DNA of 64,000 bases. Source: an uncultured Verrucomicrobiota bacterium (GTDB lineage: Bacteria; Verrucomicrobiota; Verrucomicrobiia; CAZIPW01). Where the stretch lies: positions 141,490 to 205,489 of the forward strand of contig CAZIRU010000001.1 of assembly GCA_964541905.1 (NCBI GenBank). Reading direction: 5' to 3'. The translations under genes were made by a program, and so were the position numbers. Positions 119 through 48,220 of the stretch are shown here, piece by piece. Under the pieces are notes generated by a model, which did not search any database, was not told where the DNA came from, and was given only the letters and a program-made list of their open reading frames with translations. Position 1 is the stretch's first letter. Each line of letters starts with the position of its first letter.

Positions 119-1765
119 ATGATTACGGCTTTTCAAAAAACCTTCCAAAAACACGCGCGCTGGGTCTTTATTACCCTTCTGGTCATCATGGTGATTCCCT
201 TTGTCTTTGCCTATGCGCCCGGATCAAAAGCTTCCTCACTACTTCCGCGCGACAAGGGACGTTTATTCTTGGGGCACGATCTCTCGGATGAGGCGCATGT
301 ACGCGAGCTGGGCCGGGCCGCTTCACTTGAGCAATGGCTCACGCTTGGCTATCCGCCGCAGTCTTCCGAAGAATTCCAGCGGCTTATTTTTGATCACATT
401 ATCCTATCGAACCTCGCCGACAGCCTCACAATCCCAACTCCATCCACCCAACAGCTTTCAGAATACATTGCCACACTACCGCCCTTCCTCGACGAAAATG
501 GCCGATTCAGCCAAGAGCTTTTCACTCAGCTGCAAGAGCGTTTTACCGCGCAAGAAGGTTTTGCCAAAGAATATCTGGGCGCGCGCATTGCTCAAAGCTG
601 GAGGCTCTCCCAGCTTTTCAAAAATCAGGCCGCCTTCTATTTACCCACAAGCCTCCAGCGCGAATATGGGCTTTGGGCCGCTAAATACACCACGGCCGTT
701 GCAATGCTAGAGCCGCACATAGAGGAACCCACGCTTTCGCAAGAAGAGCTGACCGAATATTTTGAAAAACATCAGGCCAACTATCGCACGCCCGAGCTGC
801 GCAGCGGCATTGCTTATGCAATACCCGCGGGAAAGTTTCTCTCGCAAATATCCGAGCCCAGCGAGGAACAGCTGCAGCGCTTTTTTGATTCCATAAGCTT
901 CCGTTTCATCGAGTGGCAAATGCAACAAGACGGGAAGCCCTCAGCTGAACCCAAGGCTCCCGCCTTGGCAGATCATCGCAAAGAAACGCTTGAGCTTTAC
1001 AAGACACAGAGAGCCGCGCGCACAGCAGCTGAAGCGGTGGATGTGATTGTGCAAAAAATATTTAAAGAAAAAATCGTTCCCGGCTCCAAAGCTTGGGAAG
1101 AACTGTTGGAGGCCAGCGGCGCACAGTTGATTGCGCTTGATGCCCTCGCGCGCGACAATCCCGATTGCGATGAGAATACCTTGAACGCACTCTTTGAAGC
1201 GCAACTGAATGTACAGCCCTATAGTGGCGCCTTTGCAACCGAAACGGATGGACGCTTTGTTTTACTCAAGAGCGTGGAGCTCTCGAAGGACCAACCACTC
1301 GAAGCTGTTGAGGAAACGGTCCAAGCAGATGCTCTTGCTGAAAAAAAACAACGCGTAGCGCTCGAGGCGATGGGGAAAAAGGTTGAGGATCTTAAATCGA
1401 CCTTTTTAGCGCAGGAGATGAGCCCTGACGTGGAGGGCCCAAGTTTTGAAGCGCTTGCACGCGAGATGGGGTTTGTCGTCACCACTCCAGAACCCTTCAC
1501 GCTTTCGCGGCCCGCGCTCGAGCTGCAGCGCAATTCGCAAAAGATCCTGCGAGGCCTTTTGGCTACAAGCGAAGGAGGTTTTGTTAGCGACATAACCCCA
1601 AAACAGGCCGTCGTTGTCTGGGTGCGCGCAAAGGACATACCTGTATTTGAGGGGGGAAACCCCGAGGCGTTTTTGCTACGCGGCAGGCTCGAAAGCATTT
1701 ATAAAAACTTACAAAAGCTCTCGTGCTTGGGCGAATGGGCTGCTCTTAACGGCAATAAAAAATAG
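119..1765 (+). CDS. membrane-anchored periplasmic chaperone-like protein (PpiD/SurA-N-like; no clear PPIase motif)
   Basis: 548-aa ORF with one N-terminal TM helix (VFITLLVIMVIPFVFAY) followed by a large soluble domain. The architecture resembles PpiD/SurA-type chaperones. No catalytic motif was recognised. Confidence 0.35.
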   Translation: MITAFQKTFQKHARWVFITLLVIMVIPFVFAYAPGSKASSLLPRDKGRLFLGHDLSDEAHVRELGRAASLEQWLTLGYPPQSSEEFQRLIFDHIILSNLADSLTIPTPSTQQLSEYIATLPPFLDENGRFSQELFTQLQERFTAQEGFAKEYLGARIAQSWRLSQLFKNQAAFYLPTSLQREYGLWAAKYTTAVAMLEPHIEEPTLSQEELTEYFEKHQANYRTPELRSGIAYAIPAGKFLSQISEPSEEQLQRFFDSISFRFIEWQMQQDGKPSAEPKAPALADHRKETLELYKTQRAARTAAEAVDVIVQKIFKEKIVPGSKAWEELLEASGAQLIALDALARDNPDCDENTLNALFEAQLNVQPYSGAFATETDGRFVLLKSVELSKDQPLEAVEETVQADALAEKKQRVALEAMGKKVEDLKSTFLAQEMSPDVEGPSFEALAREMGFVVTTPEPFTLSRPALELQRNSQKILRGLLATSEGGFVSDITPKQAVVVWVRAKDIPVFEGGNPEAFLLRGRLESIYKNLQKLSCLGEWAALNGNKK

Positions 1766-1767
1766 GA

Positions 1768-2682
1768 TCAATCGAAAAGGGTTTGCGCGTCGGGTTTATG
1801 ATCGGGGCCCACGAAAAGCGTTTTTGAAACCGGAAGCTGCTTAAAAAAAGTGCGTTGCTTGCGCGCCAACGCAAGCGTATCTTGTACAATGAGCTCAAGA
1901 AGCGCTTCGCGTGAAGAAATCTCGCCGCGCAAAAAAGCCAAGACCTCGCGATAGTCGATAACACTTGCAGCCTGTGGATTTTGCGAGAGCCCGCTGGCTT
2001 CCAAACGGCGAACTTCTTCTAAAAGTCCTCCATTGAGCATTATTTCGGCACGCAAGCGGATGCGGGCTTTAAGGTCTTCATTTTCGCGCATGAGCATAAC
2101 GACGCGCTTTTGAAAATTCGCATAGGGACGCGGCTGGTTCCGAAACTCTTCATGCAACTCACGAAAGCTCTTTCCGGTGGCACGCACGCGCTCAAGCGCC
2201 TTGATCACTCGGCGGGGATTCCGAGTGTCCAAGCCGGTCAGGTCTTTGCCGCCTCTGCGACGGAGTTCTTTCAGAAGCCCTGCGAGGCCCTCGTTTTTGA
2301 AAAGGTTTGCCACTTCGTTAACAACCTCTTCACCAACGCCTACCCCATCGGTGACATTTTCAAAAAAGCTTTTAAGGTAAAAGGCGCTGCCTCCGGCAAC
2401 AAGGAGCACCTTGTCCCGCAACTGAACGTCAGCAACGACTTGGCGTGCTCGTTCAATATAGTCGGCTACCGAAAAGCGCTCGGTCATAGTTACATAATCT
2501 ATCCCATGGTGAGGAACGGCACGCCGTTCTTCGGCTGTCGGCTTTGCCGTGCCAATATCCATACCCTTGTAAACCAGCGGAGCATCTGCACAAAGAATTT
2601 CCGCATCATGAGCTTGCGCCCACTCAATAGCGAGGGCAGTTTTACCTACAGCTGTTGGACCTATAAGGAAGAAAAGCTTCAT
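1768..2682 (-). CDS. miaA: tRNA dimethylallyltransferase
   Basis: P-loop GPTAVGKT near the N-terminus and overall MiaA-like sequence (DAEILCADAPLVYKGMDIGTAKP). Start moved to the ATG at 2682 (MKLFFLIG), internal to the longer ORF listed in the track. Confidence 0.85.
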   Translation of the reverse strand: MKLFFLIGPTAVGKTALAIEWAQAHDAEILCADAPLVYKGMDIGTAKPTAEERRAVPHHGIDYVTMTERFSVADYIERARQVVADVQLRDKVLLVAGGSAFYLKSFFENVTDGVGVGEEVVNEVANLFKNEGLAGLLKELRRRGGKDLTGLDTRNPRRVIKALERVRATGKSFRELHEEFRNQPRPYANFQKRVVMLMRENEDLKARIRLRAEIMLNGGLLEEVRRLEASGLSQNPQAASVIDYREVLAFLRGEISSREALLELIVQDTLALARKQRTFFKQLPVSKTLFVGPDHKPDAQTLFD

Positions 2683-2717
2683 GCGCAGTCGCATTTTAAG
2701 GGCACGGGCACATTTTT

Positions 2718-4025
2718 TCAAGAAAGAGGACTTGGCAAATGGGGGGCCAACTGAATTTTCTTGAGCCCCACCTTTATCGGCCACCAGAAGTTCCAAGCCA
2801 ATTGCACCGCCCACAACCAAATAATCATACCTGTCACACCAAAGAGCTGCAGCGCACCAGCTCCGCCTAAAATCGCCAGAACGCCGCTAAGCACGTCATA
2901 TTTCCAAAAAGGAAACTCGTTGAAAGCACTCACCAGCGTCACAAAATTGTTGCGGTGATTTTCGAGGATAAAAAAGGCCATGAGCGCGGCCAGCGCAGAA
3001 AGTGGTAAAAGGTGCGTCTTGGCGCTCAAAAGCTGTAGCGCCCATGGGCCCGCCGCCAGAAGGCTAAGCGCAAAAACTGTGTGCCCCAAGAGCGTTTGAC
3101 GGATCTTTTTTAAAAAAAGAGAGCGTAGCGCAGCAAGGTCCCCCGAAGCCGTCAGTGCGTGCAAATGGGGAAGTACCGCCACCATCGGAATTTGTGCCAG
3201 CGCCGTCAGAAATAAGCCAACTTGAACGCTAAAACCGTAAGGCCCCGCCAACTCAACGCCCAAAAGGCGCCCCATCAAAAGCGTTGGGCCGTGATAAATA
3301 AGCGCCTGCCCCAATCTCGAGCAACCCGTGCGCCACGAATTGGGCCAGAGTTTTTGAAACAAATCTCCACGCCACACGCCTCCTTTGAACCGCCGGCAGG
3401 CGACTGTAAAAAGAATATATTGCAGCAACCAGCCCACCGCCAGCGCACTGCAGCCCCAAAAAAGCGAATGGGTGATAAAGAGCACTACCGCCGCAAGCCC
3501 GAAAGTCAGCAAGATGCCGAAACTAAAAAGTTTTTGCGCACCCAAAAGGCGGCCCGCCCCTTGTAGATAAGCATAGCGCTGCGAGACCATAAGCTGCAAT
3601 CCAGCCGCGAAACAATAAAACCACCAAGCGACATACACGCCTGCTGTACGCTCCCACTCGGGCAAAAGCAAAAGACCTCCTAATCCGCCTCCAAGCAAAA
3701 TCAAAAAACCAAGCGCTGCATACAAAAAAGAGGTTGTCGCTAACAAATCTTTCAGGCCGCGCCAGTTGGGCCCCGAACCCTCCACTTCACAAAGCCCTTG
3801 AGGCCGCAAGTCGGCCACTCCAGCCCAGAAATGGCTGCTGCTGCGCAAAACTGCCGCTGAAAGCCCCACATCCAAAAGTTGCACCAACGCACCAAAGCTC
3901 GAAAATAAAAACCACAAGCCGGACGCCGTCTTATCCAACGCGGTTACCGCAGCCATCGTCAGAAAAAAAACGCCAAACGCGCGTGACGCTAGGGCGCTGG
4001 CCGTCCAAAGAGTTTCGCGGCTCAT
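2718..4025 (-). CDS. polytopic membrane protein, MOP/Wzx-type oligosaccharide flippase-like
   Basis: 435 aa with roughly 12 predicted TM helices. It overlaps the start of the downstream GT2 gene by 4 nt, suggesting an operon with the GT2 and GT39/83-like genes. Confidence 0.45.
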   Translation of the reverse strand: MSRETLWTASALASRAFGVFFLTMAAVTALDKTASGLWFLFSSFGALVQLLDVGLSAAVLRSSSHFWAGVADLRPQGLCEVEGSGPNWRGLKDLLATTSFLYAALGFLILLGGGLGGLLLLPEWERTAGVYVAWWFYCFAAGLQLMVSQRYAYLQGAGRLLGAQKLFSFGILLTFGLAAVVLFITHSLFWGCSALAVGWLLQYILFTVACRRFKGGVWRGDLFQKLWPNSWRTGCSRLGQALIYHGPTLLMGRLLGVELAGPYGFSVQVGLFLTALAQIPMVAVLPHLHALTASGDLAALRSLFLKKIRQTLLGHTVFALSLLAAGPWALQLLSAKTHLLPLSALAALMAFFILENHRNNFVTLVSAFNEFPFWKYDVLSGVLAILGGAGALQLFGVTGMIIWLWAVQLAWNFWWPIKVGLKKIQLAPHLPSPLS

Positions 4026-7783: not shown

Positions 7784-9769
7784 TCAACTTTTCAAGACCC
7801 GCTCGTGCGCGTTGGTTTTGAGGGCCTCGACGAGTTTCTCCAGCCGCGCCTGCGCTCTTTTTTGCACAGCCAGGGCCATCTCGTCCACCCCTAGGGGTTC
7901 CCAGACAAAGCAATAAAAACGAACGCTGGGCTGGGTTCCGCTGGGCCGAATGCAAAAACGGCCTCCATCAATGTCGCAAATGATCATAGCCTCCGGCGGG
8001 ACCGTCTCTCCATCTGCATCCAGTATTTTTTCGTGCAGAAAATCGCGCACAGATCTGATCGCGCATTCACCTACGCTCTTCGGTGGGGACTTAATATAGG
8101 AGTCCACCAATTTTTTAAGTTTTGCCGCCCCATCAGCGCCTTCAAACGACACTTCCACCATTTTATCCTGATGGACGCCGTATTTGCGATAGAGCTCCTC
8201 TATGCCATCGGTGATCATTTTGCCTCGGCTAGCTAGGCGTGCCAACATTTCCGCAAACATCAGCACGGCGGCGTTAGCGTCCTTGTCCCTTACGCAATCA
8301 TAACCTAAATATCCATAGCTTTCTTCGCCTCCAAAGACGAAATATTTGCTATACTTCAGCAAAAGCTCACGGCGTTTTTCAAAAGACGTTCGATCATAAT
8401 CCAAGCCCACCCCATCTTTTGCCAACACGGCTTTCAGGCGCTCTTCATACATTCGTACCCGCCCGCATATCCATTTAAAACCGGTCAATGTGTTGATACA
8501 AGCAAGCCCATGCCGCTGGGCTATTTGGTCTTGCATGGGGGTCGTAACAAAAGTCTTTATAAAAACTGCGTTAGGGTGTCCCTCAGCTGGAAGTTGCCCA
8601 AGCTCTTTCATTTTACAAAGACGATCCTCCGCGATAAGGGAACCGATTAAATTTCCATTCAGGATCTTCCAGCCACCATCCGGCAACCGAACTGCCGCTC
8701 CCATGCGGTCACAATCCGGATCAGTAGCCAGCACTGCCTCTGCGCCGGCAACTTCCGCCTTTTTCATTGCAAGCTCAAGTGTCTCGGCATGCTGGGGATT
8801 GGGATATTTGACCGTCGGAAAGCGGCCATCAAAATTATTCTGCTCCTCTACCAGCAAAACCCCTGTTCCATATTTTTCGAAAGCGCGCGGCACCATGACC
8901 CCTCCGGTTCCATGCACGGGGCTGTAAACCATCTTCGGGGGATATTTCTTCAAGATCTCCGGCTCTAGGAGCGTCTCGCCCAGCGCAGTTAGATACGCTT
9001 CGTCAACGCTTGGGGGTAGAATTATTACTCTTGAAAGGTCCCTTTCCAGCAGCGCGAAGGTTTCGTTAAGGCTGATTTTTTCGACCTCTTCAATAATCTT
9101 TCTCTCAGGTTCACCAGAGATGAGCGCCCCATCGCCAAAATAGACTTTATAACCATTGTCGTGCGAAGGGTTGTGGCTGGCGGTGATGGCGACGCCAGCA
9201 GTGGCCCCCGCATATCGGGTTGTGAAGCTTAATTGCGGCACAGAACGCGGTCCTTCAAAAAGAAGCGCCACCCCTCCCAGCCTGACCCAGCAAGAAGCCG
9301 TCAACTCCGCGAAGCGCCTGGAAAAATGGCGGACATCGTGGGCAATGACAAGCTTTGGCGGTGTGAAGGTATGAGAGGTTTGAGCCAAATAATCCTTGCA
9401 ATAACGGAAAAGCCCCATTGTCGCGCGCAAGACGTTAAAGTCGTTCATCATCGCCGAGCCTAAAGCGGCATGCTCGGGCACTCCCCACGAATCAACACGC
9501 GCCTTTTCCGCTTCGGTGGAGGTTATCGCTATGGTTCGGCCGCGTATTCCCGAGGTCCCAAACCTGTTGCGCTTGTAAAACCTATTATTAAATTCGTCGG
9601 CCATCTCTGGGCGCGACAGCTCTTCCAAACTGGCATACACCCAAGAAGGAAAGCCTTCTGTCTCGATATAAGGCCTTGCGTTTTCAAAACTTTCCGGAAG
9701 GATTTTCCCCTGATCCTTTAAGGCGGTCAATCGTTGCAATATTTGCGCTGGGTTTATTTTCTCGGGCAT
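7784..9769 (-). CDS. alpha-D-phosphohexomutase (phosphoglucomutase/phosphomannomutase family)
   Basis: Active-site serine motif TASHNPSHDNGYK, plus the metal-binding DPDCDR and sugar-binding GGEESYG motifs. Confidence 0.85.
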   Translation of the reverse strand: MPEKINPAQILQRLTALKDQGKILPESFENARPYIETEGFPSWVYASLEELSRPEMADEFNNRFYKRNRFGTSGIRGRTIAITSTEAEKARVDSWGVPEHAALGSAMMNDFNVLRATMGLFRYCKDYLAQTSHTFTPPKLVIAHDVRHFSRRFAELTASCWVRLGGVALLFEGPRSVPQLSFTTRYAGATAGVAITASHNPSHDNGYKVYFGDGALISGEPERKIIEEVEKISLNETFALLERDLSRVIILPPSVDEAYLTALGETLLEPEILKKYPPKMVYSPVHGTGGVMVPRAFEKYGTGVLLVEEQNNFDGRFPTVKYPNPQHAETLELAMKKAEVAGAEAVLATDPDCDRMGAAVRLPDGGWKILNGNLIGSLIAEDRLCKMKELGQLPAEGHPNAVFIKTFVTTPMQDQIAQRHGLACINTLTGFKWICGRVRMYEERLKAVLAKDGVGLDYDRTSFEKRRELLLKYSKYFVFGGEESYGYLGYDCVRDKDANAAVLMFAEMLARLASRGKMITDGIEELYRKYGVHQDKMVEVSFEGADGAAKLKKLVDSYIKSPPKSVGECAIRSVRDFLHEKILDADGETVPPEAMIICDIDGGRFCIRPSGTQPSVRFYCFVWEPLGVDEMALAVQKRAQARLEKLVEALKTNAHERVLKS

Positions 9770-9838
9770 AAAAGTCTCCTAAAGCCCTACGGCTCTTTTT
9801 GTCGAAGCTTTTCGAAAAAGAGTAGGAATGAAAACCGC

Positions 9839-11269
9839 TCAAACGAGCACAAGGCCTTCCGTAACCTTTTCGGGCACACGACCTTCGGCGTGGCGAACTT
9901 TAAACTCTTCTAGGGTCTCGGCAAAGAGCGGTGAGATTTCAAAATTCACCAATGGAACACCGTTCGCATCGCAGGGAATCTCAACTCCCACGCTTTTGAA
10001 CCAAAATGCCCACAGCTTAAGCTGGTCCTCGCGGCACGAGACGGCTGAGTCCACGCCTTCCGCGTTTTTAATAGGGCTAAACTCCTCACGCGTGGTTGGT
10101 GTCACCATGCTATTTTCAGCCATAGGAATCGCATCGAAAATAAATTGTTCGAACTTTGTCGCATTCGGCTCAGCCGGCGAGACAATCTTTTCGCCATCCC
10201 AAAAGGGGACTTTTTTATAGGCGCGATGATAGGGAAGGGCGGCCGTCTTGGCGATTTGCCGGATAAAGCTCACATCAATCGCGTGGATGGCGATACTGCC
10301 CTGATTAAAACGCAACTCCCCCTCGCTTGTGCGTTCATTCGCCAGCGCCTCGGGCATATCCACATACTCAATGACACTCACTCTGCCGTCTCTTCTCACA
10401 AAATTGCCGACCTTTTCCATCGGCCCACGCTTGGGAAGGCTCTTGGAGCTAAATTGGCTGCGTAAAATCTTATGAGCCCCTAAAAAGACCGGGTCAAGAA
10501 TACGCACAAGGGGGTTATCCACTTGCCAATAGCTTAAAGTAGCCACGCTGCGCCGCTGCAGCCAGTCCAGCGCTCCCGAATTTTGGAGCCCCTTGATGGC
10601 GCCACCATGTCCATCGGGATTTAGAGCAAGGCTTGTGGGCGAAGCCAAAAGCATCTCGTGCGTTTTTGTATCTACCGCAGGCATGGTCCCCTGCTCAAAA
10701 AAGAAAATTTGCTCCTCTTTGAGGCCAAAAAACTTTTTCTCCCAAAAGTATTCGACTGTTTGATTATTATTTTGCGGGCTTGTCATGATGATCCAGGGGA
10801 TCGTCGCGCCCGAACGACACTGCGCCGTGAGGATTTTCTCCGCAAAAACCTGAAAAAGAGATGCGCGCCGCACGGGGGTGGTCGGAAAGCAGCCCTTTGG
10901 ACCCTCGAACCCCAACCGAGACCCTTGACCGCCCGCGACCACAAAAAGCGCCACTTGCCCGGAAGCAATCATATCTTCGCCTATTTCACGGGCTGTCTTT
11001 TGGTCAAACGCCGCCAGCTCCACCGGCTGCAACTTGTCTGTTTTCACCTTTTCCGCGGAGGGTTTTTCCTTCAAGAGCCTCTTAAGCGCTTCAAAATCAA
11101 CGCTTTCAAGCTCAGCAAAAAGATCGGCTTGTTGTGGCGTCGCCAGGGACTTGAAGTGCGCAATGAGCTTCTTTTGCCCCAGTTTTTCAAGTACGGCAAC
11201 AACTTTATCGCGCGAAATGGAGAATTTGTTCGTTGGGATAGGCATAACCAATTTTTTCTCGGATGACAT
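9839..11269 (-). CDS. UDP-sugar pyrophosphorylase, UDPGP family (UAP1 / UDP-GlcNAc pyrophosphorylase-like, eukaryote-type)
   Basis: Motifs VAGGQGSRLG, MTSPQNN..T..YF and NPDGHGG typical of the UDPGP family. Start moved to the ATG at 11269 (MSSEKK) to limit overlap with the upstream ftsB-like gene. Confidence 0.7.
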   Translation of the reverse strand: MSSEKKLVMPIPTNKFSISRDKVVAVLEKLGQKKLIAHFKSLATPQQADLFAELESVDFEALKRLLKEKPSAEKVKTDKLQPVELAAFDQKTAREIGEDMIASGQVALFVVAGGQGSRLGFEGPKGCFPTTPVRRASLFQVFAEKILTAQCRSGATIPWIIMTSPQNNNQTVEYFWEKKFFGLKEEQIFFFEQGTMPAVDTKTHEMLLASPTSLALNPDGHGGAIKGLQNSGALDWLQRRSVATLSYWQVDNPLVRILDPVFLGAHKILRSQFSSKSLPKRGPMEKVGNFVRRDGRVSVIEYVDMPEALANERTSEGELRFNQGSIAIHAIDVSFIRQIAKTAALPYHRAYKKVPFWDGEKIVSPAEPNATKFEQFIFDAIPMAENSMVTPTTREEFSPIKNAEGVDSAVSCREDQLKLWAFWFKSVGVEIPCDANGVPLVNFEISPLFAETLEEFKVRHAEGRVPEKVTEGLVLV

Positions 11270-36092: not shown

Positions 36093-37673
36093 CTATTTTA
36101 CGCCGCCTTGAGCTTCGGAGATAGCTTTGCGAACAGCGTCAATGAGGGTTTGTGCGGGGCAAGGCTTGCTGAGAATATCGCCGATGCCACACGCTTTGGC
36201 CTCTTCGGCCTTAATGCGCTCGTTATAACCAGAGATGAGAATCGCAGGGGTAGAGATGTGCTTTTCGCGGATTTTTTTAACCATCTCAATGCCATTGAAC
36301 TCGGGCATGGTAAGGTCAGTGATGATCAGGTCGAAAGCGTTCGGGTCTTTTTCGAGTAGGGAAAGAGCCTGGCGAGGATGGTTGACGGCCTGCACCTGAT
36401 AACCCATTTCGCCGAGCAGCTCGCTACCCACCGACGTGATTAGGGGCTCGTCATCGACGAGCAGGATACGTTCACCGCCAGACCGTGCTGGGGAAACGGA
36501 AGACAATTCGTCTTTTGTAAGTTGTTTTTCCACGATAGGAAGAAAAATTTCGAAAGTTGAGCCAACGTTCTCTTTGCTATCAAAACGGACATACCCCTCA
36601 TGACGCAAGACGATACCATGAACAATCGCCAGTCCCATCCCAGAGGTCTGAATACCTTCGGCCGTAGAAGCGAAGGGTTCAAAAATGCGCGGTTTAAGGG
36701 CCTCTTGAATGCCGCGACCGTTATCCCGGATGGAGATTTTGATGCAGTGCACGGCGCGCCCGTGGCCCTGGGCGACTGCCGAAGGAAACTCTTGCCAGGT
36801 TTCTTCGACAAAAACCCCCATCTTCGGATTTTCCCGACCGTCAAGCGATTGAAGAGCATTTGTAAAAAGATTCAACAGCATCTGATTGATTTCGTCGCTA
36901 ACAATCATCACGACAGGAAGCTGCTCGGGGATATGGGTGTCAATCTGAACGGCGCGCGGCGTGGCAGACCGGATGAACTCAACCGCGTGGCGGACAATGG
37001 GGCAAATATCGATGTGCTTTTTCTGGCCTTCTCCGCGTTTGCTGAAAGTGGACATTTGCGAGACGAATTCTTTGGCCTGAGTCGTGGCTTTAAGAATTTT
37101 TTGAACGCGATCCGCGACCTTGGGATTGTCAGAGCCAATCATGCCTAAAATTTCGGCATGTCCCATAATGGCCGCCAGCATGTTATTGAAGCGATGCGCG
37201 ATGCCGCCAATCAGCGTGCCAATAGACTCCAGCCGATGCATGGCTTGCAGGTGGCGCGCGATGGTTTGCTCCCGGGTGCGGTCAATGCCCACGCCGACGT
37301 AGGCGACTAATTTTCTTTTGGCGTCAAAAACCGCGCTTACGGAAGTCTGAAGGTCTAGAATAGCTCCCGTTTTTGTCTTAACTTGCAAAACTCCGTGCCA
37401 GCGTTCCCCAGCCTTTACGAGGTTAAGGCTATGCTCCACCCACTCGGAGCCATCCATGAGCTGAATGAAGTCCAGGGTTTTTCCAAAGACTTCCGTTTCG
37501 GAAAAACTGGTTTTTTCGCAAAAAGCGGCGTTGACACTTTGGACGTGCCCAGAGGGGTCCACAACAACGACAAGCTCGTGGGTCAAATTGACAACCTTCT
37601 CGAGAGTAACAGCCCGCAAGTCTTCATTGCGCTGCGCGCCGAAGAGGTTGGGAAACGGAGGGTGGGTGTTCAT
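36093..37673 (-). CDS. hybrid sensor histidine kinase / response regulator (PAS-HisKA-HATPase-REC)
   Basis: N-terminal PAS-like region, H-box HRFNNMLAAIMGHAEIL, ATPase G-box region (IRDNGRGI, TSGMGLAIV), and a C-terminal receiver (ILLVDDEP...DLIITDLTMPEFNG...K). Confidence 0.85.
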   Translation of the reverse strand: MNTHPPFPNLFGAQRNEDLRAVTLEKVVNLTHELVVVVDPSGHVQSVNAAFCEKTSFSETEVFGKTLDFIQLMDGSEWVEHSLNLVKAGERWHGVLQVKTKTGAILDLQTSVSAVFDAKRKLVAYVGVGIDRTREQTIARHLQAMHRLESIGTLIGGIAHRFNNMLAAIMGHAEILGMIGSDNPKVADRVQKILKATTQAKEFVSQMSTFSKRGEGQKKHIDICPIVRHAVEFIRSATPRAVQIDTHIPEQLPVVMIVSDEINQMLLNLFTNALQSLDGRENPKMGVFVEETWQEFPSAVAQGHGRAVHCIKISIRDNGRGIQEALKPRIFEPFASTAEGIQTSGMGLAIVHGIVLRHEGYVRFDSKENVGSTFEIFLPIVEKQLTKDELSSVSPARSGGERILLVDDEPLITSVGSELLGEMGYQVQAVNHPRQALSLLEKDPNAFDLIITDLTMPEFNGIEMVKKIREKHISTPAILISGYNERIKAEEAKACGIGDILSKPCPAQTLIDAVRKAISEAQGGVK

Positions 37674-39923: not shown

Positions 39924-41759
39924 TCACTTGCTATCCGCGTAACGCTTAAGCCCAGTTATGGTGTAGCTCTGGCCGCCCACGGAAACACTCTCGCCAGTGC
40001 GTTTGCCCAAGAGGCCCTGCGCCAGAGGCGTTTTGTAGGAGAGGATGTTTTTCTCGGGGTTGCCATCCCAGGCGCCCAAAATCGTATAGGATGCCTTGCC
40101 GGAAGAAGTTTGCAGCTCAACGATCGAACCGACGCCGACCATATCGGTTGGGCAGTCGATAAAGTCTGTCCCGCGTGCGATGCGCAGCTCGGCCTCCATT
40201 TGCGATTTTTGAGCCATAAACGTGTCTTGGTCCTGGCGCGCCATTTTGTATTCGGAGTTTTCCGAAAGATCTCCGTGTTCGCGTGCAATGGCGATGTCTT
40301 CTTTGTTTTTAGGAATCTTTACCGTGACCAAGTGCTGATAGTCGGCCTTGCGTTTTTCGAGGCTCTCCCACGAAACAATAAGCCCATCTTCTTGAGCGGT
40401 GCTCTCTTCGGTCGAGATAAGCGACTGGATTTCGGGGAATTGCTTGATAAAGCGGGCCAAAAGCGAGCGCTTAGTCAATGTTTCGAAGCCTTGGCTCATC
40501 AGCAATGTATTGGCTAGATCTCGAGCCATCTCGGGGGTGGCCGTCGAAAGTAACTCTCCGACCAGCTCGCGGTCCTCGGCCAGCAGTTCTACCAAGCTGA
40601 TGCGCTTTGAGCTGGCGTTTTGGATGGCTTCGCGGTCGATAGCGTAGAAAATGGCGCTAAAGAGCCGCGGCGAAATTAGCGGACTGAGCATCGTGGAATA
40701 GCGACGGACATTGCGATTCTTTAAAATCCACGAAATGAGAGGGGCTTTTAAGAGCTGCTCGTCCAGCCACTTATTTAGCATCTCGTTGAGGGTGGAGCTT
40801 TGATTGTTATCAAGCAGAAAGCTGACGCACTCTTGCGTGAATTTGCCGGATGAGTTTTTAAGCAAATCGAAAAGAATGTTGGTCCAGTCATTGGGATGAG
40901 CCTCCATAAGCGCATTGAGCAGGCGCGCTTGATATTGAGAGGGCAGCTTCTCCGCCAGCTCCTGCAACTCGCGGCTTTCTCTGACAATAGCGGCTGCAGA
41001 GGGCTGCATAGACGAACCGTCGATTTTGGCCAGATGCGCCAGATCGTCGCGGACCCATGAGCCCTGCAGCTTCTCACTGGGGGTTAGGATGCGGGATTCA
41101 GAAAGGGCTGCATTCAGCTCAGAAATGAGGGTCGGGAGCTTGGAGATGATTTCTTGCGAAAGACTTGTCTTCTCCAGCAAGCTTGAGGCAAGCTCAATCT
41201 TCTTTTTGACATTTTTGGTTTTGTAAAAGGCCACAAGAGCTTCGTCTTCGGCTGCAACGGGCTCACTATGCAGCTGGTAGCGATCGGTTTTCTTTTCAGG
41301 AAAGGTGATGCGGCCGTCTTTTGCGGCACGCTTCTTGGCGGGAGAAAGCCACTTTTTGTAATTTTCGCCCAACAAATACTGGAGGGTCTCTTCCATCTCA
41401 ATAACACTCATCGAGCCGTCGGGGGTTTGGGAAAGAATAAGCAAAAAGACTTCGGCGGGATTAGTGTCCAGCAGCGCTTGGATCTCAGCGGGTTCGCGGC
41501 GGTGACGCGCGATGATGTGGTTTTCTGGCAAAAGCGTGAGTTTGGATACAAAAAAACCAGGGTCCATTGAGCGAGGCTCACCCTGGTTCTCGAAAGCGAC
41601 CATCAGCTTGCCGGAGCTTTCGTCAAAATCGGTGATACACCCGACTCCCCAGGCGCGATGAACGCAGTAGGAGCCTTTTTTGAGCTGTTTGAGCTTGTCT
41701 TTCTGGCCAGTCAAAGAGGGGTTTGTTTTTATAATTGAATCAATAAGGGCAGCTTCCAT
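39924..41759 (-). CDS. GreA/GreB-family transcription elongation factor with a long N-terminal extension
   Basis: The C-terminal ~150 aa carry Gre coiled-coil and FKBP-like domain signatures (REHGDLSENSEYKMARQDQ...GSIVEL...G..SY.ILG). The preceding ~450 aa are unique. This architecture is known from Chlamydia GreA. Confidence 0.6.
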   Translation of the reverse strand: MEAALIDSIIKTNPSLTGQKDKLKQLKKGSYCVHRAWGVGCITDFDESSGKLMVAFENQGEPRSMDPGFFVSKLTLLPENHIIARHRREPAEIQALLDTNPAEVFLLILSQTPDGSMSVIEMEETLQYLLGENYKKWLSPAKKRAAKDGRITFPEKKTDRYQLHSEPVAAEDEALVAFYKTKNVKKKIELASSLLEKTSLSQEIISKLPTLISELNAALSESRILTPSEKLQGSWVRDDLAHLAKIDGSSMQPSAAAIVRESRELQELAEKLPSQYQARLLNALMEAHPNDWTNILFDLLKNSSGKFTQECVSFLLDNNQSSTLNEMLNKWLDEQLLKAPLISWILKNRNVRRYSTMLSPLISPRLFSAIFYAIDREAIQNASSKRISLVELLAEDRELVGELLSTATPEMARDLANTLLMSQGFETLTKRSLLARFIKQFPEIQSLISTEESTAQEDGLIVSWESLEKRKADYQHLVTVKIPKNKEDIAIAREHGDLSENSEYKMARQDQDTFMAQKSQMEAELRIARGTDFIDCPTDMVGVGSIVELQTSSGKASYTILGAWDGNPEKNILSYKTPLAQGLLGKRTGESVSVGGQSYTITGLKRYADSK

Positions 41760-42658: not shown

Positions 42659-42730
42659 CGCTCCCGTCGGGAGTCGAACCCGAATCGCCGGCTTCGGAGG
42701 CCAGCATTCTATCCATTGAAATACAGGAGC
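42659..42730 (-). tRNA. tRNA-Arg (anticodon CCG)
   Basis: The reverse complement folds with acceptor GCTCCTG/CGGGAGC, anticodon stem CTGGC/GCCGG, loop CTCCGAA (U33, anticodon CCG, A37), T-arm GGGTTCGACTCCC. 72 nt; CCA not encoded. Confidence 0.7.
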
Positions 42731-42779: not shown

Positions 42780-44321
42780 CTACCGTTGGCGCTCGATGAC
42801 CTTTCGGGCGTAATCCAAAAGGTCTGTTTCCATGGCGTCATTTTGCTCAGCGCTTATGAGAGAAAGCTGGAGCGTAGAGCGGGACGGAAGGCGTTTGTGC
42901 TGCAGAAAATCCTGCCATCTGTCGGCGTGCTCCATGCGGTCACGCGTATCGGTGGGGTCGGGTGAGAGGCGGAAAAATAACAGCGTCGCAAACTGGCCCG
43001 CTGGATTTTTGAAGCGCGAAAGGGTTCCAGGGAGCGAGGGCTCGGCGGGTTTTTGACCCTCCAAAAAGACAGACCGCGAGTCGAGCATTTCCCAGCCTAC
43101 GTTGGGCAGGCAATTTTCCGGATGGTGGCTGGCGCTCCCAAGGCGCGAAAGGCGCGGGGAGGCCCATTCGAAATAGAAAAGTTGGTACAGACCTTTGGTA
43201 TCTTTCCAGCGCCAAGACTCTCCCTTGGAAAAAAAGAGCGACGAGCGGAAGCGTGCCGCATCGGGAGTTACAACCGAGGCCGGGAGCCTCGCGTCTTGCG
43301 GTTTCGCAAGAGTATAGCCAGAACTCTCTTCGTGAGGATAGTATAGAGGCGTCAGTAGCGGTCCTGCAATAACCAACCCTAACACGCTCAGCGAAAGCCG
43401 TAGGGGCAGCGGAGGGATCGCCTGCCGTGTAAGGACCGTCGAACCCGTCTTTTTGCGCGGCAAAAAAGTGGCAACGCCATAGAGTGCCGCAAAGCTCAAA
43501 ACGAAAACACTCCAGCCGGCCGTATCGTGCAAAAGCAGAGGTAAGGCGGCTCCTGAGGTTGCGGCTGTCAGTATAAGCAAAAGCGAGCGCAGCAAATTGA
43601 AAACAAGTGAAAAGATTACCGAAAGAACAAACAAAAGCCCTCGAGCGTGTCCCCTCAGGCGAAAGTATTCGCCAAGCACTCCCGCCGCGAAAAGATTACC
43701 CACGAGCGAACGAATGCCCGAGCATGCTTCCTCCACCCCAACGACCGTGCCATTGCCCAAAAGGATGAGGTTCCCCATGGCCCTTGCCGAAAGCCCCAAA
43801 AGGTGCGTGATGTCCACGGCTGCAAAAGTAAGCCCCTCCTGGAGCGCTCCCGAAACAGCCCGCATAAAAAGTGTTGGCCAAGGTACGCACAAAAGGGGCA
43901 GAACCGCAAGCGGCCAAAACCGGCGCAGCATCGGCGGCCCGCCGTAGCGGTACGCGAGCGCGCAAGTAAGCGCTGCGCACAGCAGGGCCTGCGCCCAAAT
44001 AACCCCGCGCCAATCGGCGTTGGCCTCAAAAAGAAGGTGTAGCGGCACGCAAAAAATTGTCCCCAGAAGAATTGTCGCCTCCAACGCTTTTCTCCGCGTT
44101 CCCATTGGAGCCGCCGCAACATCGGCAGCAAAGTCCCTTGCGCGTTCATAAACCAACAGCCCAAGAATAATGGGCGCCAAAAGCGCAAATTCATACAGCG
44201 GGTTGTGGGCGTATTCCGTGAAAAGTTCCGAAAAAAAGAGTAGCCAAGGCGCACACAAAGCGGCGATACTAAGACGATGCCTCCACGAGGGCTTTGCCGG
44301 TTCTTGCAAGGAGCTTTCCAT
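42780..44321 (-). CDS. exosortase-family transpeptidase (Xrt) with C-terminal EpsI-like periplasmic domain
   Basis: N-terminal polytopic domain with the exosortase active-site Cys motif VGVEEACSGIRSL, followed by a ~200-aa soluble C-terminal domain. The start is uncertain: the ATG at 44321 (or a TTG at 44309) overlaps the divergent response-regulator start. Confidence 0.55.
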   Translation of the reverse strand: MESSLQEPAKPSWRHRLSIAALCAPWLLFFSELFTEYAHNPLYEFALLAPIILGLLVYERARDFAADVAAAPMGTRRKALEATILLGTIFCVPLHLLFEANADWRGVIWAQALLCAALTCALAYRYGGPPMLRRFWPLAVLPLLCVPWPTLFMRAVSGALQEGLTFAAVDITHLLGLSARAMGNLILLGNGTVVGVEEACSGIRSLVGNLFAAGVLGEYFRLRGHARGLLFVLSVIFSLVFNLLRSLLLILTAATSGAALPLLLHDTAGWSVFVLSFAALYGVATFLPRKKTGSTVLTRQAIPPLPLRLSLSVLGLVIAGPLLTPLYYPHEESSGYTLAKPQDARLPASVVTPDAARFRSSLFFSKGESWRWKDTKGLYQLFYFEWASPRLSRLGSASHHPENCLPNVGWEMLDSRSVFLEGQKPAEPSLPGTLSRFKNPAGQFATLLFFRLSPDPTDTRDRMEHADRWQDFLQHKRLPSRSTLQLSLISAEQNDAMETDLLDYARKVIERQR

Positions 44322-44913
44322 GACACCTATGTTAAAAATTCTGATAGCCGAAGACGATGAAATTTCGCGCAAGCTGATCTCTACCATTTTGCAGCAGCTG
44401 GGTTATGAGGTCGAGGCTTTTGCGGATGGCGAGGCGGCCTGGGAATATTTCGCCAAGGAGCCCACCTCCATCCTTATTACCGATTGGCTGATGCCCAAGA
44501 TGGACGGTCTTGCGCTCACACGTCGCCTTCGCGCGCATCGGGCGGATGCCTACACCTACATCATTTTGCTCACGGCCAATGTGCAGAGCACCGAAAACTA
44601 TTACGCCGCGATGGAAGCGGGGGTGGACGACTTTATCGAAAAACCGCTCGACCGCGAAAAGCTTTGGAGTCGCCTGCGAGTAGCGGAACGAATTTTGAGC
44701 TACACCCATCGCATCGGCCGCTTGGAGGCGATGATGCCGATTTGCAGCTATTGCAAAAAAGTTCGCGACGGCGCGGAGTATTGGAAACAGGTCGAGGATT
44801 ATATGCAGGAGCAGACCGGCACGACCTTTAGCCACAGTATTTGTCCCGACTGCTACGAGAAAATTGTCAAGCCCCAGCTCGAAGAGATGGAGAGGAAGAA
44901 GCATGGAAATTAA
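44320..44913 (+). CDS. response regulator: receiver domain plus C-terminal Cys4 zinc-ribbon-like domain
   Basis: REC motifs ILIAEDDE, ILITDWLMPKMDG and ILLTA..K. The C-terminal CSYCKK...CPDCYEK gives four Cys. A strong SD AAGGAG lies 7 nt upstream of the ATG at 44320. Confidence 0.75.
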   Translation: MTPMLKILIAEDDEISRKLISTILQQLGYEVEAFADGEAAWEYFAKEPTSILITDWLMPKMDGLALTRRLRAHRADAYTYIILLTANVQSTENYYAAMEAGVDDFIEKPLDREKLWSRLRVAERILSYTHRIGRLEAMMPICSYCKKVRDGAEYWKQVEDYMQEQTGTTFSHSICPDCYEKIVKPQLEEMERKKHGN

Positions 44914-45865
44914 GAAAGTCCGGCTTATCAGTCCCTCGCAGATGTATGCGGCTTTCCCAATGTCTGGGCGTCAGGCCACCTTTGATTCTATCTATAGGGC
45001 ATTTCCAAAACTGGAATTGAGCATGGGCTTTCTAAGCGGAGAGGAACACCCTGCTGGCCTAGATGTTTGCGGCGAATGTGCAGGAACTCCTCAAGAGCGT
45101 CTGCGAGAGCTCGATGAAGCTCTTCTCGACCCGACTGTGGACGCCGTGTGGACGACACGCGGAGGACATATGCAAATGAGCCTTGCGCGTTTGTTGCGGA
45201 GGTACCGACCGGCCAAGAAAAAACCCATCTTTGGTATGTCCGATAACACACTTATATTGGCGTGGGCTCATAAGCAGGGTATGCCTGCCTTCTATGCCCC
45301 GGGCTTCAACGATTTTTCCCGCGAACCGGGTAGGCCAACTTTCGAGAGCCTACGCAAAGTCTTCTCCGGGGATTTCTCCTGGTCGCTAAAGCCCTCCCCG
45401 GAATATAAAGACTGGGTCGGAGAGCAATCGCAGTGGCAACCAAATCCAGGAGCATGGATTTTGCAAGAGGGAAGGGCTCGAGGCGAAACTATTGTAGGGC
45501 ATATGGGGCGCCTGTTGTGCTCAGCAACCCTAGGCTGGCTGCCGAATCTAAAAGGGAAACTGCTTTTTGTCGACGATACCAGCACTTCAGCGAAGGTTTT
45601 TTATGCAGAGTTGGACCACCTTCTGAGTCTTTGCGGCGCTGACAAAATCCGCGGCCTTTGTATCGGTCGTTTCGCTGGAGCTCCAACCATAACGCGCGAA
45701 GCGCTCACTCAGATTATCGCGGCGCTCCCTGAGCTCAAAAACAAGCCTGTTGTTGCCAACCTCGATTTTGGCCATACCTATCCGATTGTCACACTTCCTT
45801 TTTCGGGACGCGCAACACTCGTTGCTGAGAAAAACGAACTTTTTTTGGAAGGCTGCGCCCGATAA
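44903..45865 (+). CDS. LD-carboxypeptidase (peptidase S66, MccF/LdcA-like)
   Basis: S66-like Ser motif FGMSDNT, 321 aa. Start at the ATG at 44903, preceded by GAGGAAGAAG. Confidence 0.5.
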   Translation: MEIKKVRLISPSQMYAAFPMSGRQATFDSIYRAFPKLELSMGFLSGEEHPAGLDVCGECAGTPQERLRELDEALLDPTVDAVWTTRGGHMQMSLARLLRRYRPAKKKPIFGMSDNTLILAWAHKQGMPAFYAPGFNDFSREPGRPTFESLRKVFSGDFSWSLKPSPEYKDWVGEQSQWQPNPGAWILQEGRARGETIVGHMGRLLCSATLGWLPNLKGKLLFVDDTSTSAKVFYAELDHLLSLCGADKIRGLCIGRFAGAPTITREALTQIIAALPELKNKPVVANLDFGHTYPIVTLPFSGRATLVAEKNELFLEGCAR

Positions 45866-45886: not shown

Positions 45887-46858
45887 ATGCGATTCTTAAT
45901 TATTGGCGCGGGGGCTTGGGGAACAGCGATGGCGGTGCACTTGGGGCGCGGCCGTCACGAGGTGATTTTGGGCTGTCGCGACGAGGCGCAACTTGCAAAA
46001 ATCAATGCGACTGGCGAGAATGTGGATTTTCTCCCAGGCGTGAAGGTGGCCGGCGTTGAGTGTGTCGTCTCTCAAAACGCGCGCGGGGCTTTTGATGCCG
46101 TTTTTGTGGCGCTACCAAGCTATGCTTTTGAAGAAGGTTTGCGTGACGTTTCGTTGGATGCCCGCCGTTGGATAAATCTTGCGAAGGGTTTCGACATCGA
46201 GACGCTCGAAAGCGGCGGCGAAAAGCTCGAAAGGCTTTTGCCCGGGCGAATTGTCATGGCCTTGAGTGGTCCAACCAATGCGCGGCTTGTGGCCGAAGAG
46301 ACTCCTTGCGCGATGGTGGTTTCGGGCCGCATTGACGAAACTACGCGCGCGCTTCAAGAGGCGATTAGCTCGCCAGCCATGAGGCTTTATACTTCTGCCG
46401 ATCGGCGCGGCGCAGAACTGGGCGGGGCTCTCAAAAATGTTTTTGCGGTGGCGGCGGGCGTTTGCGACGGCTTGGGCCTAGGAGATAACGCCAAGGCGGG
46501 GCTTTTGACGCGCGCAGTGGCCGAAATGGCGCGGCTTGGGATGGCGCTTGGCGGACAAAAAGAGACCTTTTGGGGGCTTACGGGAGTGGGAGATTTAATG
46601 GCAACTAGTTACGGCGTCTGGAGTCGCAATCGTCAACTGGGCGAGCGCGTTGCGCGCGGCGAGGACCCAAGGTGGCTTACAACCGAGGGGGGGCTAACGG
46701 CCGAGGGTTATCGCACAAGCCTTGCGCTTCGCAAACTTGCGCGAGGCAAGGGAGTTGATGCGCCAATTGTCGAAGCAGTTGCGGCCATTCTTTATGAGAA
46801 TCGAGCCCCGAGAGATATTGTCTGTGAACTCATGGGAAGGACGCTCAAGGGCGAATAG
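45887..46858 (+). CDS. gpsA: NAD(P)H-dependent glycerol-3-phosphate dehydrogenase
   Basis: N-terminal Rossmann MRFLIIGAGAWGTAMA and GpsA-typical motifs (GDLMATSYG..SRN). Confidence 0.85.
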   Translation: MRFLIIGAGAWGTAMAVHLGRGRHEVILGCRDEAQLAKINATGENVDFLPGVKVAGVECVVSQNARGAFDAVFVALPSYAFEEGLRDVSLDARRWINLAKGFDIETLESGGEKLERLLPGRIVMALSGPTNARLVAEETPCAMVVSGRIDETTRALQEAISSPAMRLYTSADRRGAELGGALKNVFAVAAGVCDGLGLGDNAKAGLLTRAVAEMARLGMALGGQKETFWGLTGVGDLMATSYGVWSRNRQLGERVARGEDPRWLTTEGGLTAEGYRTSLALRKLARGKGVDAPIVEAVAAILYENRAPRDIVCELMGRTLKGE

Positions 46859-46912: not shown

Positions 46913-48220
46913 TTACTTCCCTATGGCTCGAAGCACTTCTTCCATGAAAGCTTTGGCGTCGATAGGTTTTTGAATGAGACGCGTGACCCCCATGTTACCC
47001 AAGCGTACAACCTCCGGCAGCTGGATGTTCCCGGTAACGATGAAAATCGGCAACGCTGCGTCTGTTTGTCGCGCTTGCGCAACAAAATCTACGCCATTGA
47101 TTCCTGGCATGCGAAAATCGGTAATGATAAGGCTAAACCGCTCCTTTCTCATGGCTAGAAGCGCTTCGGAGGGGTTGTTAAGCTTTAGGGCTCCGAGTTT
47201 GCAGCTCTCCAGCAAATCCACTACCATTTGCGCGTGCAGATCTTCGTCATCGAGCACTAAAACCCGCGCAGGAGTTTTTGCGTCTTTGAAAGGTGTTGAG
47301 CTGAGGTGCTTAAGCGCTTTTTGCACGCTGTCGGGGTTGTGAATATGGCCCAGTCCGGCAATCTTCGGCAACTTCAATTCTAGATTCCCTAAAAAGAGGT
47401 AAAATTCATCATCAATAGCCTTTTCTTCATAGAGGGCATCCAATTCCTTGTTCAGGCAAAATAAAAACCGCACGTTGGGAAGTTTTTCAAAGGGCGCCTC
47501 TTTCTTCGCGATTCGGTAAAAGAGTGTTCGTTCGGCTTCCGAAAGCGCCTCGATGCGCTCAACAAGAAAAAGGGTCGGCGAGGAACCGACTGCGCGTAAG
47601 AGCCCTTCCTCGCGCGCATAATCCGCTTGCCATGGAAGAAGTTTCTCGCCGGCAGCGCTGTGCTTGGCAAATTCTTCGGCTACGGCTCGGAAGGGGCTGG
47701 ACTCGTCGCCAATAAGTAACAAGGTGCCCCTAAAATCTACAAGCGTTTGGAGCTTTTTAAAGAAAAGCTCGCGGCTGACCGTTGAGCCGAAAGGCGTTTG
47801 AGTAAAACCGCGAATGCCCGGATCGGGAGTGGCCAAACCAGACGCCTTTACGCTTCCGTTGAAAAGCTCTTCCACTCGTTTGAGCAGCGCAAAAATATTG
47901 AGTGGTTTGAAGAAGATGCCCGAAACCCCCAAATTCACAAATTCTTGCGCCGAGTCGTGGTCCAAAAAGCCCGAGATTACAATGACAGGAAGGGTGGAGT
48001 GCTTCTTTCTAATCTCGCGCAGCAGCTCAACTCCGGTTGTTTCTCCAAGGCGCTGATCTATCACAAGCAAATCATATGCAGCCTCGGCTAAAAAGGCCGC
48101 GGCCTTTTCCGCTTTTGTGGTGGAGCTGACGCCGTAACCTGCTTGCGTCAGAATTTCCGTCAGCAGACTGACAAAGTCGCCATCGTCATCAATGATAAAA
48201 ATATTTTGAGACTGCCCCAC
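46913..48220 (-). CDS. dual-receiver response regulator with degenerate sigma-54-type AAA+ central domain
   Basis: N-terminal REC (IFIIDDDGD...LLVIDQRLG), a central region resembling NtrC AAA+ but with a degenerate Walker A (LLLIGDESSPFR), and a C-terminal second REC (VLVLDDEDL...LIITDFRMPGINGV...K). No HTH. Confidence 0.6.
   Translation of the reverse strand: MGQSQNIFIIDDDGDFVSLLTEILTQAGYGVSSTTKAEKAAAFLAEAAYDLLVIDQRLGETTGVELLREIRKKHSTLPVIVISGFLDHDSAQEFVNLGVSGIFFKPLNIFALLKRVEELFNGSVKASGLATPDPGIRGFTQTPFGSTVSRELFFKKLQTLVDFRGTLLLIGDESSPFRAVAEEFAKHSAAGEKLLPWQADYAREEGLLRAVGSSPTLFLVERIEALSEAERTLFYRIAKKEAPFEKLPNVRFLFCLNKELDALYEEKAIDDEFYLFLGNLELKLPKIAGLGHIHNPDSVQKALKHLSSTPFKDAKTPARVLVLDDEDLHAQMVVDLLESCKLGALKLNNPSEALLAMRKERFSLIITDFRMPGINGVDFVAQARQTDAALPIFIVTGNIQLPEVVRLGNMGVTRLIQKPIDAKAFMEEVLRAIGK

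Follow-up and report, generated by a model that had tools for sequence, protein, structure and literature searches.

Clade-specific pairing of an exosortase gene with a REC-Cys4 response regulator in Verrucomicrobiota, and candidate promoters within their opposed coding starts

A 64,000-nucleotide stretch of contig CAZIRU010000001.1 from an uncultured Verrucomicrobiota bacterium (assembly GCA_964541905.1, positions 141,490 to 205,489), referred to here as the window, carries an exosortase gene head-to-head with a gene for a response regulator in which a receiver (REC) domain is joined to a four-cysteine (Cys4) module, and the two start codons overlap. A model's reading of the sequence alone had described this arrangement and proposed that it serves dedicated regulation of PEP-CTERM protein sorting. 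The observation itself is confirmed, and its interpretation is partly supported. The explanation that we favor, and hold to be on balance the probable one, is clade-specific synteny in which the promoters of the two genes would each be embedded in the opposite gene, and in which the regulator is not dedicated to the exosortase. The exosortase gene would then simply abut, head-to-head, an operon composed of an orphan REC-Cys4 regulator followed by (ldcA and) gpsA. The features of the junction are as follows, with positions numbered from the first nucleotide of the window.

42780..44321, minus strand: exosortase (EpsH family) coding sequence (CDS), 513 aa from ATG 44321, identified by PF09721, TIGR04178 and alignment with 13 homologs
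44320..44913, plus strand: REC-Cys4 response regulator CDS, 197 aa, or 194 aa if from ATG 44329
44319..44322: CATG, in which the exosortase ATG (44321-44319, minus strand) and the regulator ATG (44320-44322, plus strand) have two bases in common
44308..44313, plus strand: AAGGAG, resembling a Shine-Dalgarno (SD) sequence, 6 nt ahead of ATG 44320 and not kept in the other loci with the pair
44329..44334, minus strand: TAACAT on the exosortase strand (ATGTTA on the plus strand), placed 7 nt ahead of the exosortase ATG 44321 as a candidate -10 element; the same bases supply the alternative start of the regulator and, after it, a rare Leu codon
44231..44246, plus strand: the 16-nt block AAAAAAAGAGTAGCCA, antisense of exosortase W-L-L-F-F (TGG CTA CTC TTT TTT), a candidate A-tract plus -35 element (TAGCCA)
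44265..44270, plus strand: GATACT, a candidate -10 element of the regulator promoter judged from sequence, 18 nt after TAGCCA

The exosortase and regulator genes are paired in ten loci (the window, L003, L086-L089 and L170-L173), all from one narrow Opitutales-like clade, where the closest exosortase homologs (41-49% identity) share contigs with the closest regulator homologs (68-78% identity). Outside this clade the association disappears in both directions. No exosortase was found by tblastn and a clade hidden Markov model within 10 kb of REC-Cys4 relatives (38-74% identity) at any of 80 species-representative genome loci, and no Cys4 module lies near distant exosortases at any of 80 metagenome loci, only one of which has a receiver domain of any kind. 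Conservation of the regulator elsewhere without exosortase linkage is what the sequence-only reading had itself named as counting against dedicated regulation, and it was found in 80 of 80 loci; by that measure the dedicated-regulator reading is refuted outside the clade and weakened inside it.

Within the clade, locus L006 is informative. Its regulator is 74% identical to that of the window and nests among those of the pair-bearing loci in a neighbor-joining tree, and the gene order is acyltransferase, tRNA and hydrolase, then regulator and gpsA, with no exosortase; the locus also lacks both the 16-nt block and the NTA second codon described below. Because a hydrolase like that of L006 lies just past the exosortase in the pair loci, the exosortase appears to fill a slot between hydrolase and regulator from which it can be lost. 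The L006 alpha/beta hydrolase gene (9297-10588) shares 4 nt (ATGA) with the start of the regulator, which implies co-transcription there in place of an embedded promoter. The steadier partner of the regulator is gpsA, which lies directly downstream of it in L003, L086, L088, L089, L171, L173, L006 and L004; only in the window genome does ldcA intervene, the other clade loci running directly from regulator to gpsA. The pairing of exosortase and regulator is therefore best explained, with somewhat more confidence than doubt, as synteny particular to this clade and not as a dedicated circuit, with the targets of the regulator not being the exosortase specifically.

Directly downstream of the exosortase in several relatives there is a gene for a small secreted protein of 83-105 aa with a signal peptide followed by KSYQVTGPVLEV... 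(L003 643-909; L087 6522-6839; L088 6510-6761; L172 1841-2098). We considered this protein as an exosortase substrate and rejected it, since it lacks a PEP-CTERM tail and since the window, with a tRNA-Arg gene in that position, does not encode it.

The distance from start to start is -2 nt (CATG) in the window (or +7 nt), L089 and L171, 6 nt in L003, L086, L088 and L172 (and in L087 if a GTG start is used), 7 nt in L173 and 54 nt in L170; the full set is -2, -2, -2 (or +7), 6, 6, 6, 6, 7, 18 and 54 nt. Each start has a 1.5-kb gene on the opposite strand upstream of it, so that both promoters must be located in the CDS of the partner gene. The CATG overlap had been noted in the sequence-only reading and is real, although the claim made there that this is the only in-frame N-terminal ATG of the exosortase is wrong, the open reading frame (ORF) opening at ATG 44387 (42780..44387, minus strand, 535 aa; exosortase residues are numbered from this ATG throughout). 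The 5'-most ATG was rejected as the start, as its residues 1-22 have no counterpart in the homologs. These begin M-x-L-S-L-x-F-L-A-A-P-W with a Met whose counterpart in the window ORF is H37; as no start codon is available there, the exosortase start must be upstream of it, at ATG 44321 or TTG 44309. The latter is used in the public gene call (P0121; product of 509 aa) and may be the true start, giving a gap of 10 nt. A later start, the TTG at L44, was also rejected, as it would cut the first transmembrane helix (TM1), removing R-L-S-I-A-A-L, which aligns with the conserved M-x-L-S-L-x-F-L-A-A.

The regulator start is similarly ambiguous. Translation from ATG 44320 gives MTPMLKIL..., and translation from ATG 44329 gives MLKILIAEDD, an exact match to the N-termini of the closest homologs, so that the gene may start at the second ATG. 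ATG 44320 had been considered well supported by its upstream AAGGAG; the motif is present, but SD motifs are sparse in the genome of the window (15 of 57 long ORFs; background 16%), and it therefore provides weak support that cannot settle the choice between the two ATGs. A 247-aa regulator ORF from ATG 44170 was rejected, its extension having no counterpart in homologs. Any combination of exosortase and regulator starts leaves from -2 to about 19 nt between the genes. With start codons -2 to +7 nt apart, each core promoter would fall inside the first codons of the other gene. The sequence-only reading had offered two alternatives, an internal or non-ATG exosortase start or promoters embedded in each other's coding sequence, and the near-zero gap in related loci together with nucleotide constraint on both sides favors the second.

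One part of this constraint lies in the exosortase codons. The block AAAAAAAGAGTAGCCA is identical in all ten pair loci, absent from 164 other loci and unique in the window. There are 112 exosortase alignment columns in which an invariant residue could be encoded by synonymous codons, and a single codon is used in all ten sequences at only four of these, which are the consecutive CTA CTC TTT TTT within the block; other invariant Leu columns use three or four different codons. By our arithmetic the chance that four random columns are consecutive is 109/C(112,4), about 1.8e-5. At a fixed distance of 18 nt after TAGCCA each pair locus has GATACT, GAGACT, AAGACT or GATAGT, the weaker hexamers (GAGACT, AAGACT and GATAGT) all having TGn just before them, and the regulator ATG follows 7 to 63 nt past the hexamer. 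The block, spacer and hexamer together constitute a plausible sigma-70-type promoter, and the regulator operon is probably transcribed from this element in exosortase codons about 11-25, consisting of the block, an 18-nt spacer and GAkACT.

The other part lies in the second codon of the regulator, which is TTA, CTA or ATA in seven pair loci, as well as in the window when counted from the second ATG, even though NTA accounts for no more than 16-17% of the Leu or Ile codons of these genes. ATG-NTA reads TA[A/G/T]CAT on the exosortase strand; the first base of the codon varies and 'TA' is retained, so that positions 1, 2 and 6 of a -10 hexamer are kept and position 3 drifts. The hexamer is present in eight of ten pair loci and in none of 84 relatives without an adjacent exosortase, which have N-termini of M-K/R/N-I-L, one residue shorter. 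It ends 6-7 nt before the exosortase start codon, and 6-7 nt is the canonical distance between a -10 element and the transcription start site (TSS). The rare second codon and this spacing fit a leaderless or near-leaderless exosortase mRNA, probably driven by this weak -10 element formed from the regulator ATG and the rare NTA codon. A symmetric leaderless -10 for the regulator, ending in the CAT of the exosortase, was sought and rejected, as it reads nnCCAT or CCACAT and has no TA.

There is thus good comparative evidence that the expression signals of each gene may be written in the first codons of the other. The junction would then be a natural example of promoter elements in two overlapping coding starts, visible as frozen synonymous sites, with consequences for how start sites are annotated and for the study of leaderless expression in Verrucomicrobiota. 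We speculate further that the two start sites, opposed over a distance of 10-45 bp, would permit interference. A more ambitious form of this idea, which we regard as tentative and rather improbable, is that the junction, with its zero gap, may act as two promoters that are dual-coded and interfere with each other, setting exosortase expression against that of the regulator and phospholipid-precursor operon, and that the Cys4 module is a major undescribed output domain. If this were true, polymerases facing each other over such a distance would cause expression of the sorting enzyme and of regulator-gpsA to be anticorrelated.

Several observations weigh against embedded promoters and clade-specific synteny as we have put them together. 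Loci L089 and L171 lack TAnCAT and have TATTAAAAT 4 nt upstream, and L170 keeps TAGCAT but with a spacer of 54 nt. The proposed -35 elements are weak, and a simple scanner for the sigma-70 consensus found no promoter-like site within +/-400 nt of the junction (43900-44800); that consensus may not be the one used by Verrucomicrobiota, and any promoters at the junction are therefore non-consensus. The ten pair loci, moreover, all belong to one clade, so their counts are not independent events.

The preservation of the adjacency in ten loci while the exosortase diverged to 41-49% identity could also reflect a functional tie within the clade, with the exosortase or its substrates under the control of the regulator and a tight divergence that serves co-regulation. 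Divergent regulator-target pairs are a frequent bacterial pattern, and the constraint on both strands of the junction would fit such a module as well. We consider it unlikely nevertheless, because L006 keeps regulator and gpsA without an exosortase despite lying within the clade, because reciprocal co-occurrence outside the clade is nil (0 of 80 and 0 of 80), and because the regulator, at 72-78% identity, evolves much more slowly than the exosortase, at 41-49%, in the same genomes, which fits a housekeeping role. Neither does the Cys4 module have a recognizable DNA-binding fold or family, and the sole PEP-CTERM regulatory system named by Haft et al. (PMC1569441) is PrsK/PrsR, in which the regulator is a sigma-54 enhancer-binding protein. 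Dedicated regulation of PEP-CTERM sorting was a tempting inference that is unsupported and that we have removed.

Two other explanations concern the junction itself. The overlap would vanish if it were an annotation artefact, with the exosortase starting at TTG 44309 or later and the regulator at ATG 44329, leaving a normal intergenic promoter region. The public gene call and the N-termini of the regulator homologs, which begin at a Met aligned with 44329, agree with those starts; yet every combination still leaves no more than 19 nt between the genes, the later exosortase start would remove conserved TM1 residues, and the 6-7 nt gap is repeated in independent assemblies, so that of the explanations weighed here this one strikes us as the least credible. 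It is somewhat easier to imagine, though still improbable, that the 16-nt block acts not as a regulator promoter but on the exosortase transcript or its translation, as an RNA structure, an attenuator, a slippery U7 run or a site for a protein or small RNA, since it sits about 30-50 nt into the exosortase mRNA and holds both a U7 run and the rare CTA codon. RNAalifold of the ten aligned junctions gave no conserved structure on either strand (-1.5 and -3.7 kcal/mol), the two terminator-like sites in 43900-44800 are at chance level with neither at the block, and Rfam has no match at the junction, its matches across the whole window being tRNAs and one chance hit. In its reading frame, furthermore, the U-run does not make up a canonical X XXY YYZ heptamer, and with a 1.5-kb opposite-strand gene upstream the regulator needs a promoter in this stretch.

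The exosortase assignment is secure. The 535-aa ORF matches PF09721 (Exosortase_EpsH; E 1.4e-31, 110.2 bits against a cutoff of 25.7) and the exosortase/archaeosortase signature TIGR04178 (49.4 bits, cutoff 23), and its TIGR02602 (8TM_EpsH) score of 52.8 bits is under the cutoff of 105.55. The EpsH family is defined by three invariant motifs, Cys-x-Gly, Asn-x-x-Arg and His-x3-Gly (Haft et al. 2006; PMC1569441), and the corresponding residues C222-S-G224, N264-x-x-R267 and H287-x3-G291 are invariant in our alignment of 14 sequences, bearing out the active-site Cys motif noticed from the sequence alone. All 14 models of named Xrt subtypes (XrtA...XrtW and cyanoexosortases) score far under their cutoffs, the best being XrtD with 81.4 against 400 bits. 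The protein is a genuine new member of the family, unclassified as to Xrt subtype; from its family membership it would be a membrane Cys transpeptidase, presumably acting on C-terminal sorting signals of proteins whose genes lie elsewhere in the genome. The motifs and the C-terminal domain are located as follows.

43716..43733, minus strand: EEAC(222)SG, catalytic Cys-x-Gly motif (alignment; motif definition from PMC1569441)
43584..43601, minus strand: FN(264)LLR(267)S, Asn-x-x-Arg motif (alignment; PMC1569441)
43515..43535, minus strand: LLH(287)DTAG(291), His-x3-Gly motif (alignment; PMC1569441)
42783..43370 (approximate bounds), minus strand: putative C-terminal extracytoplasmic EpsI-like domain, with sub-threshold hits of its own and PF11984 matches in clade members

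A fused EpsI-like domain had also been proposed. For the C-terminal 200 residues of the window protein all matches are sub-threshold (PF11984, 17.4 against 26.1 bits, E 0.0038; TIGR02914, 14.3 against 42.8 bits, E 0.021; XrtU_C, E 9e-4), but seven of the 14 aligned clade members match PF11984 at E <= 0.01, with a best E of 1.2e-7. The EpsI-like nature of this tail is thus suggested weakly, and through its homologs.

The regulator has a receiver domain and a Cys4 module, and no helix-turn-helix (HTH) or AAA+ domain was found in the family scan, in agreement with its earlier description as a REC protein with a four-cysteine output domain and no HTH. The receiver match is strong (PF00072, E 3e-27, 95.3 bits against a cutoff of 30.2), and the acidic pocket, phospho-acceptor D55, T85 and K108 are invariant or near-invariant in the regulator alignment; with its phospho-transfer residues intact, the protein is predicted to be switched by phosphorylation. 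The receiver is modelled by AlphaFold2 (AF2) with a predicted local distance difference test score (pLDDT) above 90 and is followed by a long helix before the Cys4 module. Full-length relatives number in the thousands and are found in Opitutales, other Verrucomicrobiota and other phyla. The two domains are located as follows.

44338..44676, plus strand: receiver (REC) domain, PF00072, residues 7-119, with D12/D13, D55, T85 and K108
44737..44853, plus strand: Cys4 module P-I-C142-x2-C145-K-K-V-R...W155...F-S-H172-x2-C175-P-x-C178, from a 48-copy alignment and the cluster search

Three further features of the regulator gene and its surroundings were noted. The codons for S143, C145 and R149 (44743-44766), at the first Cys knuckle, are AGC, TGC and CGC in nine of nine loci and constitute half of the six synonymous-invariant codons of the gene, which may reflect codon bias or another nucleotide-level constraint. 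Long open frames lie antisense to the regulator (44332-44904, minus strand, in the window; 913-3048, minus strand, in L003), and in L003 the exosortase frame runs on into it, staying open over the 645 nt that precede the exosortase start; these frames are probably a by-product of codon bias and are not conserved as protein. The histidine kinase gene nearest to the regulator is a PAS-HisKA-HATPase-REC hybrid at 36093-37673 (minus strand), and none is adjacent.

The Cys4 module extends well beyond this locus. Searching the last 77 residues of the regulator against 1.84 billion cluster representatives (50%-identity clusters) gave 19,795 proteins with E <= 1e-3, of which 3,708 reached E <= 1e-10. 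The cysteines are spaced CxxC-x29-CxxC, and the P, the four Cys (C22, C25, C55 and C58 in module numbering) and the W are invariant in 48 diverse copies, with R and H near-invariant. The module is at the extreme C-terminus in 135 of 174 copies and is placed after REC, PAS, Reg_prop/Y_Y_Y or polytopic membrane regions; it also ends HAMP sensors, occasionally precedes PilZ or LacI-type domains and is sometimes present twice in a protein. P0209 and P0213 are polytopic membrane proteins with two copies, each after a block of transmembrane helices, and this arrangement speaks against the module acting purely as a cytoplasmic DNA binder. Since the module follows signalling helices, it is regarded as a putative domain for output or interaction.

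Comparison of the module with Pfam, NCBIfam and the Protein Data Bank (PDB), both as a single sequence and as a 48-sequence profile, gave only sub-threshold noise, and public annotations of the proteins that carry it are limited to 'hypothetical', 'response regulator' or 'sensor with HAMP'. No description of the module or of the pairing came out of full-text literature searches that used the Cys4 motif strings, the combination of REC with a zinc ribbon, or that of an exosortase with a regulator. The AF2 model is of low confidence (pLDDT 55-73; 67 when modelled alone), with an arrangement of knuckle-helix-knuckle-helix, and Foldseek found no match to it in PDB at E <= 1. The module is widespread, uncharacterized and presumably zinc-binding. 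It counts about 20,000 clusters, the libraries searched contain neither a family model nor a structure or name for it, and it merits structural and biochemical study quite apart from this locus.

The surroundings of the pair in the window are of a housekeeping nature, including GreA, rplU/rpmA (L21/L27), tRNA-Arg, ldcA, gpsA and glycogen synthase. No exopolysaccharide (EPS) genes were seen across the 64 kb, so the exosortase is not in an EPS locus, the usual though not obligatory setting for genes of this family, and a regular-expression scan of the ORF tails in the window revealed no PEP-CTERM-like tails. The immediate neighbors are listed below.

42659..42730, minus strand: tRNA-Arg(CCG), 49 nt downstream of the exosortase stop and on the same strand
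44903..45865, plus strand: ldcA, LD-carboxypeptidase (Peptidase_S66), whose ATG at 44903 lies inside the last codons of the regulator (44903-44913) and overlaps its stop
45887..46858, plus strand: gpsA, NAD-dependent glycerol-3-phosphate dehydrogenase, the conserved downstream partner of the regulator

Two other genes in the region encode proteins of unusual architecture. The GreA protein (39924-41759, minus strand) is 611 aa long with an N-terminal extension of about 450 aa, and the NCBIfam models that match it best, PRK14720 and PRK06330, are those of long chlamydial GreA, which suggests a host in the PVC superphylum. Two genes from the regulator, 46913-48220 (minus strand) encodes a 435-aa protein in which two receiver domains, an unusual double-REC arrangement, lie around a weak Sigma54_activ_2 match, with no HTH.

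Each part of this locus can be compared with a described system. The exosortase resembles members of the EpsH/exosortase family, including the fused EpsH-EpsI proteins, in being a polytopic membrane protein with the three motifs and, tentatively, a C-terminal EpsI-like region; it differs in falling under the cutoffs of all named subtypes, in lying outside an EPS locus and in having no visible PEP-CTERM-like substrates in the window. In the PrsK/PrsR/PrsT system, PrsR belongs to the NtrC-like enhancer-binding proteins of sigma-54, carries AAA+ and Fis-type HTH domains and is paired with a kinase, PrsK (PMC1569441). PrsR is likewise a receiver protein of two-component type, and its gene may be found close to one for EpsH, whereas the window regulator has 197 aa with REC plus Cys4 only, no adjacent kinase and no phylogenetic link to exosortases, and PrsR (TIGR02915) is not among the best 25 of the 89 NCBIfam families matched. 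Two CxxC knuckles are common to C4 zinc ribbons and treble-clef fingers such as DksA/TraR (PF01258), and in the AF2 model the second knuckle of the window module lies at the N-terminus of a helix; the PF01258 match is sub-threshold (E 0.052), however, and the 29-residue spacing and the conserved W, R and H set the module apart from the DksA/TraR finger. Among other REC, PAS and HAMP proteins ending in CxxC...H-x2-CxxC, the C-terminal 60 residues of the window protein are those of a member with nothing distinctive.

Bacteria commonly share promoter elements between strands, with opposite-strand TSSs separated by 7-25 bp (bioRxiv 10.1101/2020.01.31.928960). In such bidirectional promoters (bioRxiv 10.1101/2020.01.31.928960; PMC12825309) key -10 bases on one strand are functional bases on the other, and a similar double use is proposed here. 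The junction described here would differ from these in that, in place of a shared intergenic -10, its elements appear to lie within two coding sequences, with the proposed TSSs facing each other and the 5' ends overlapping.

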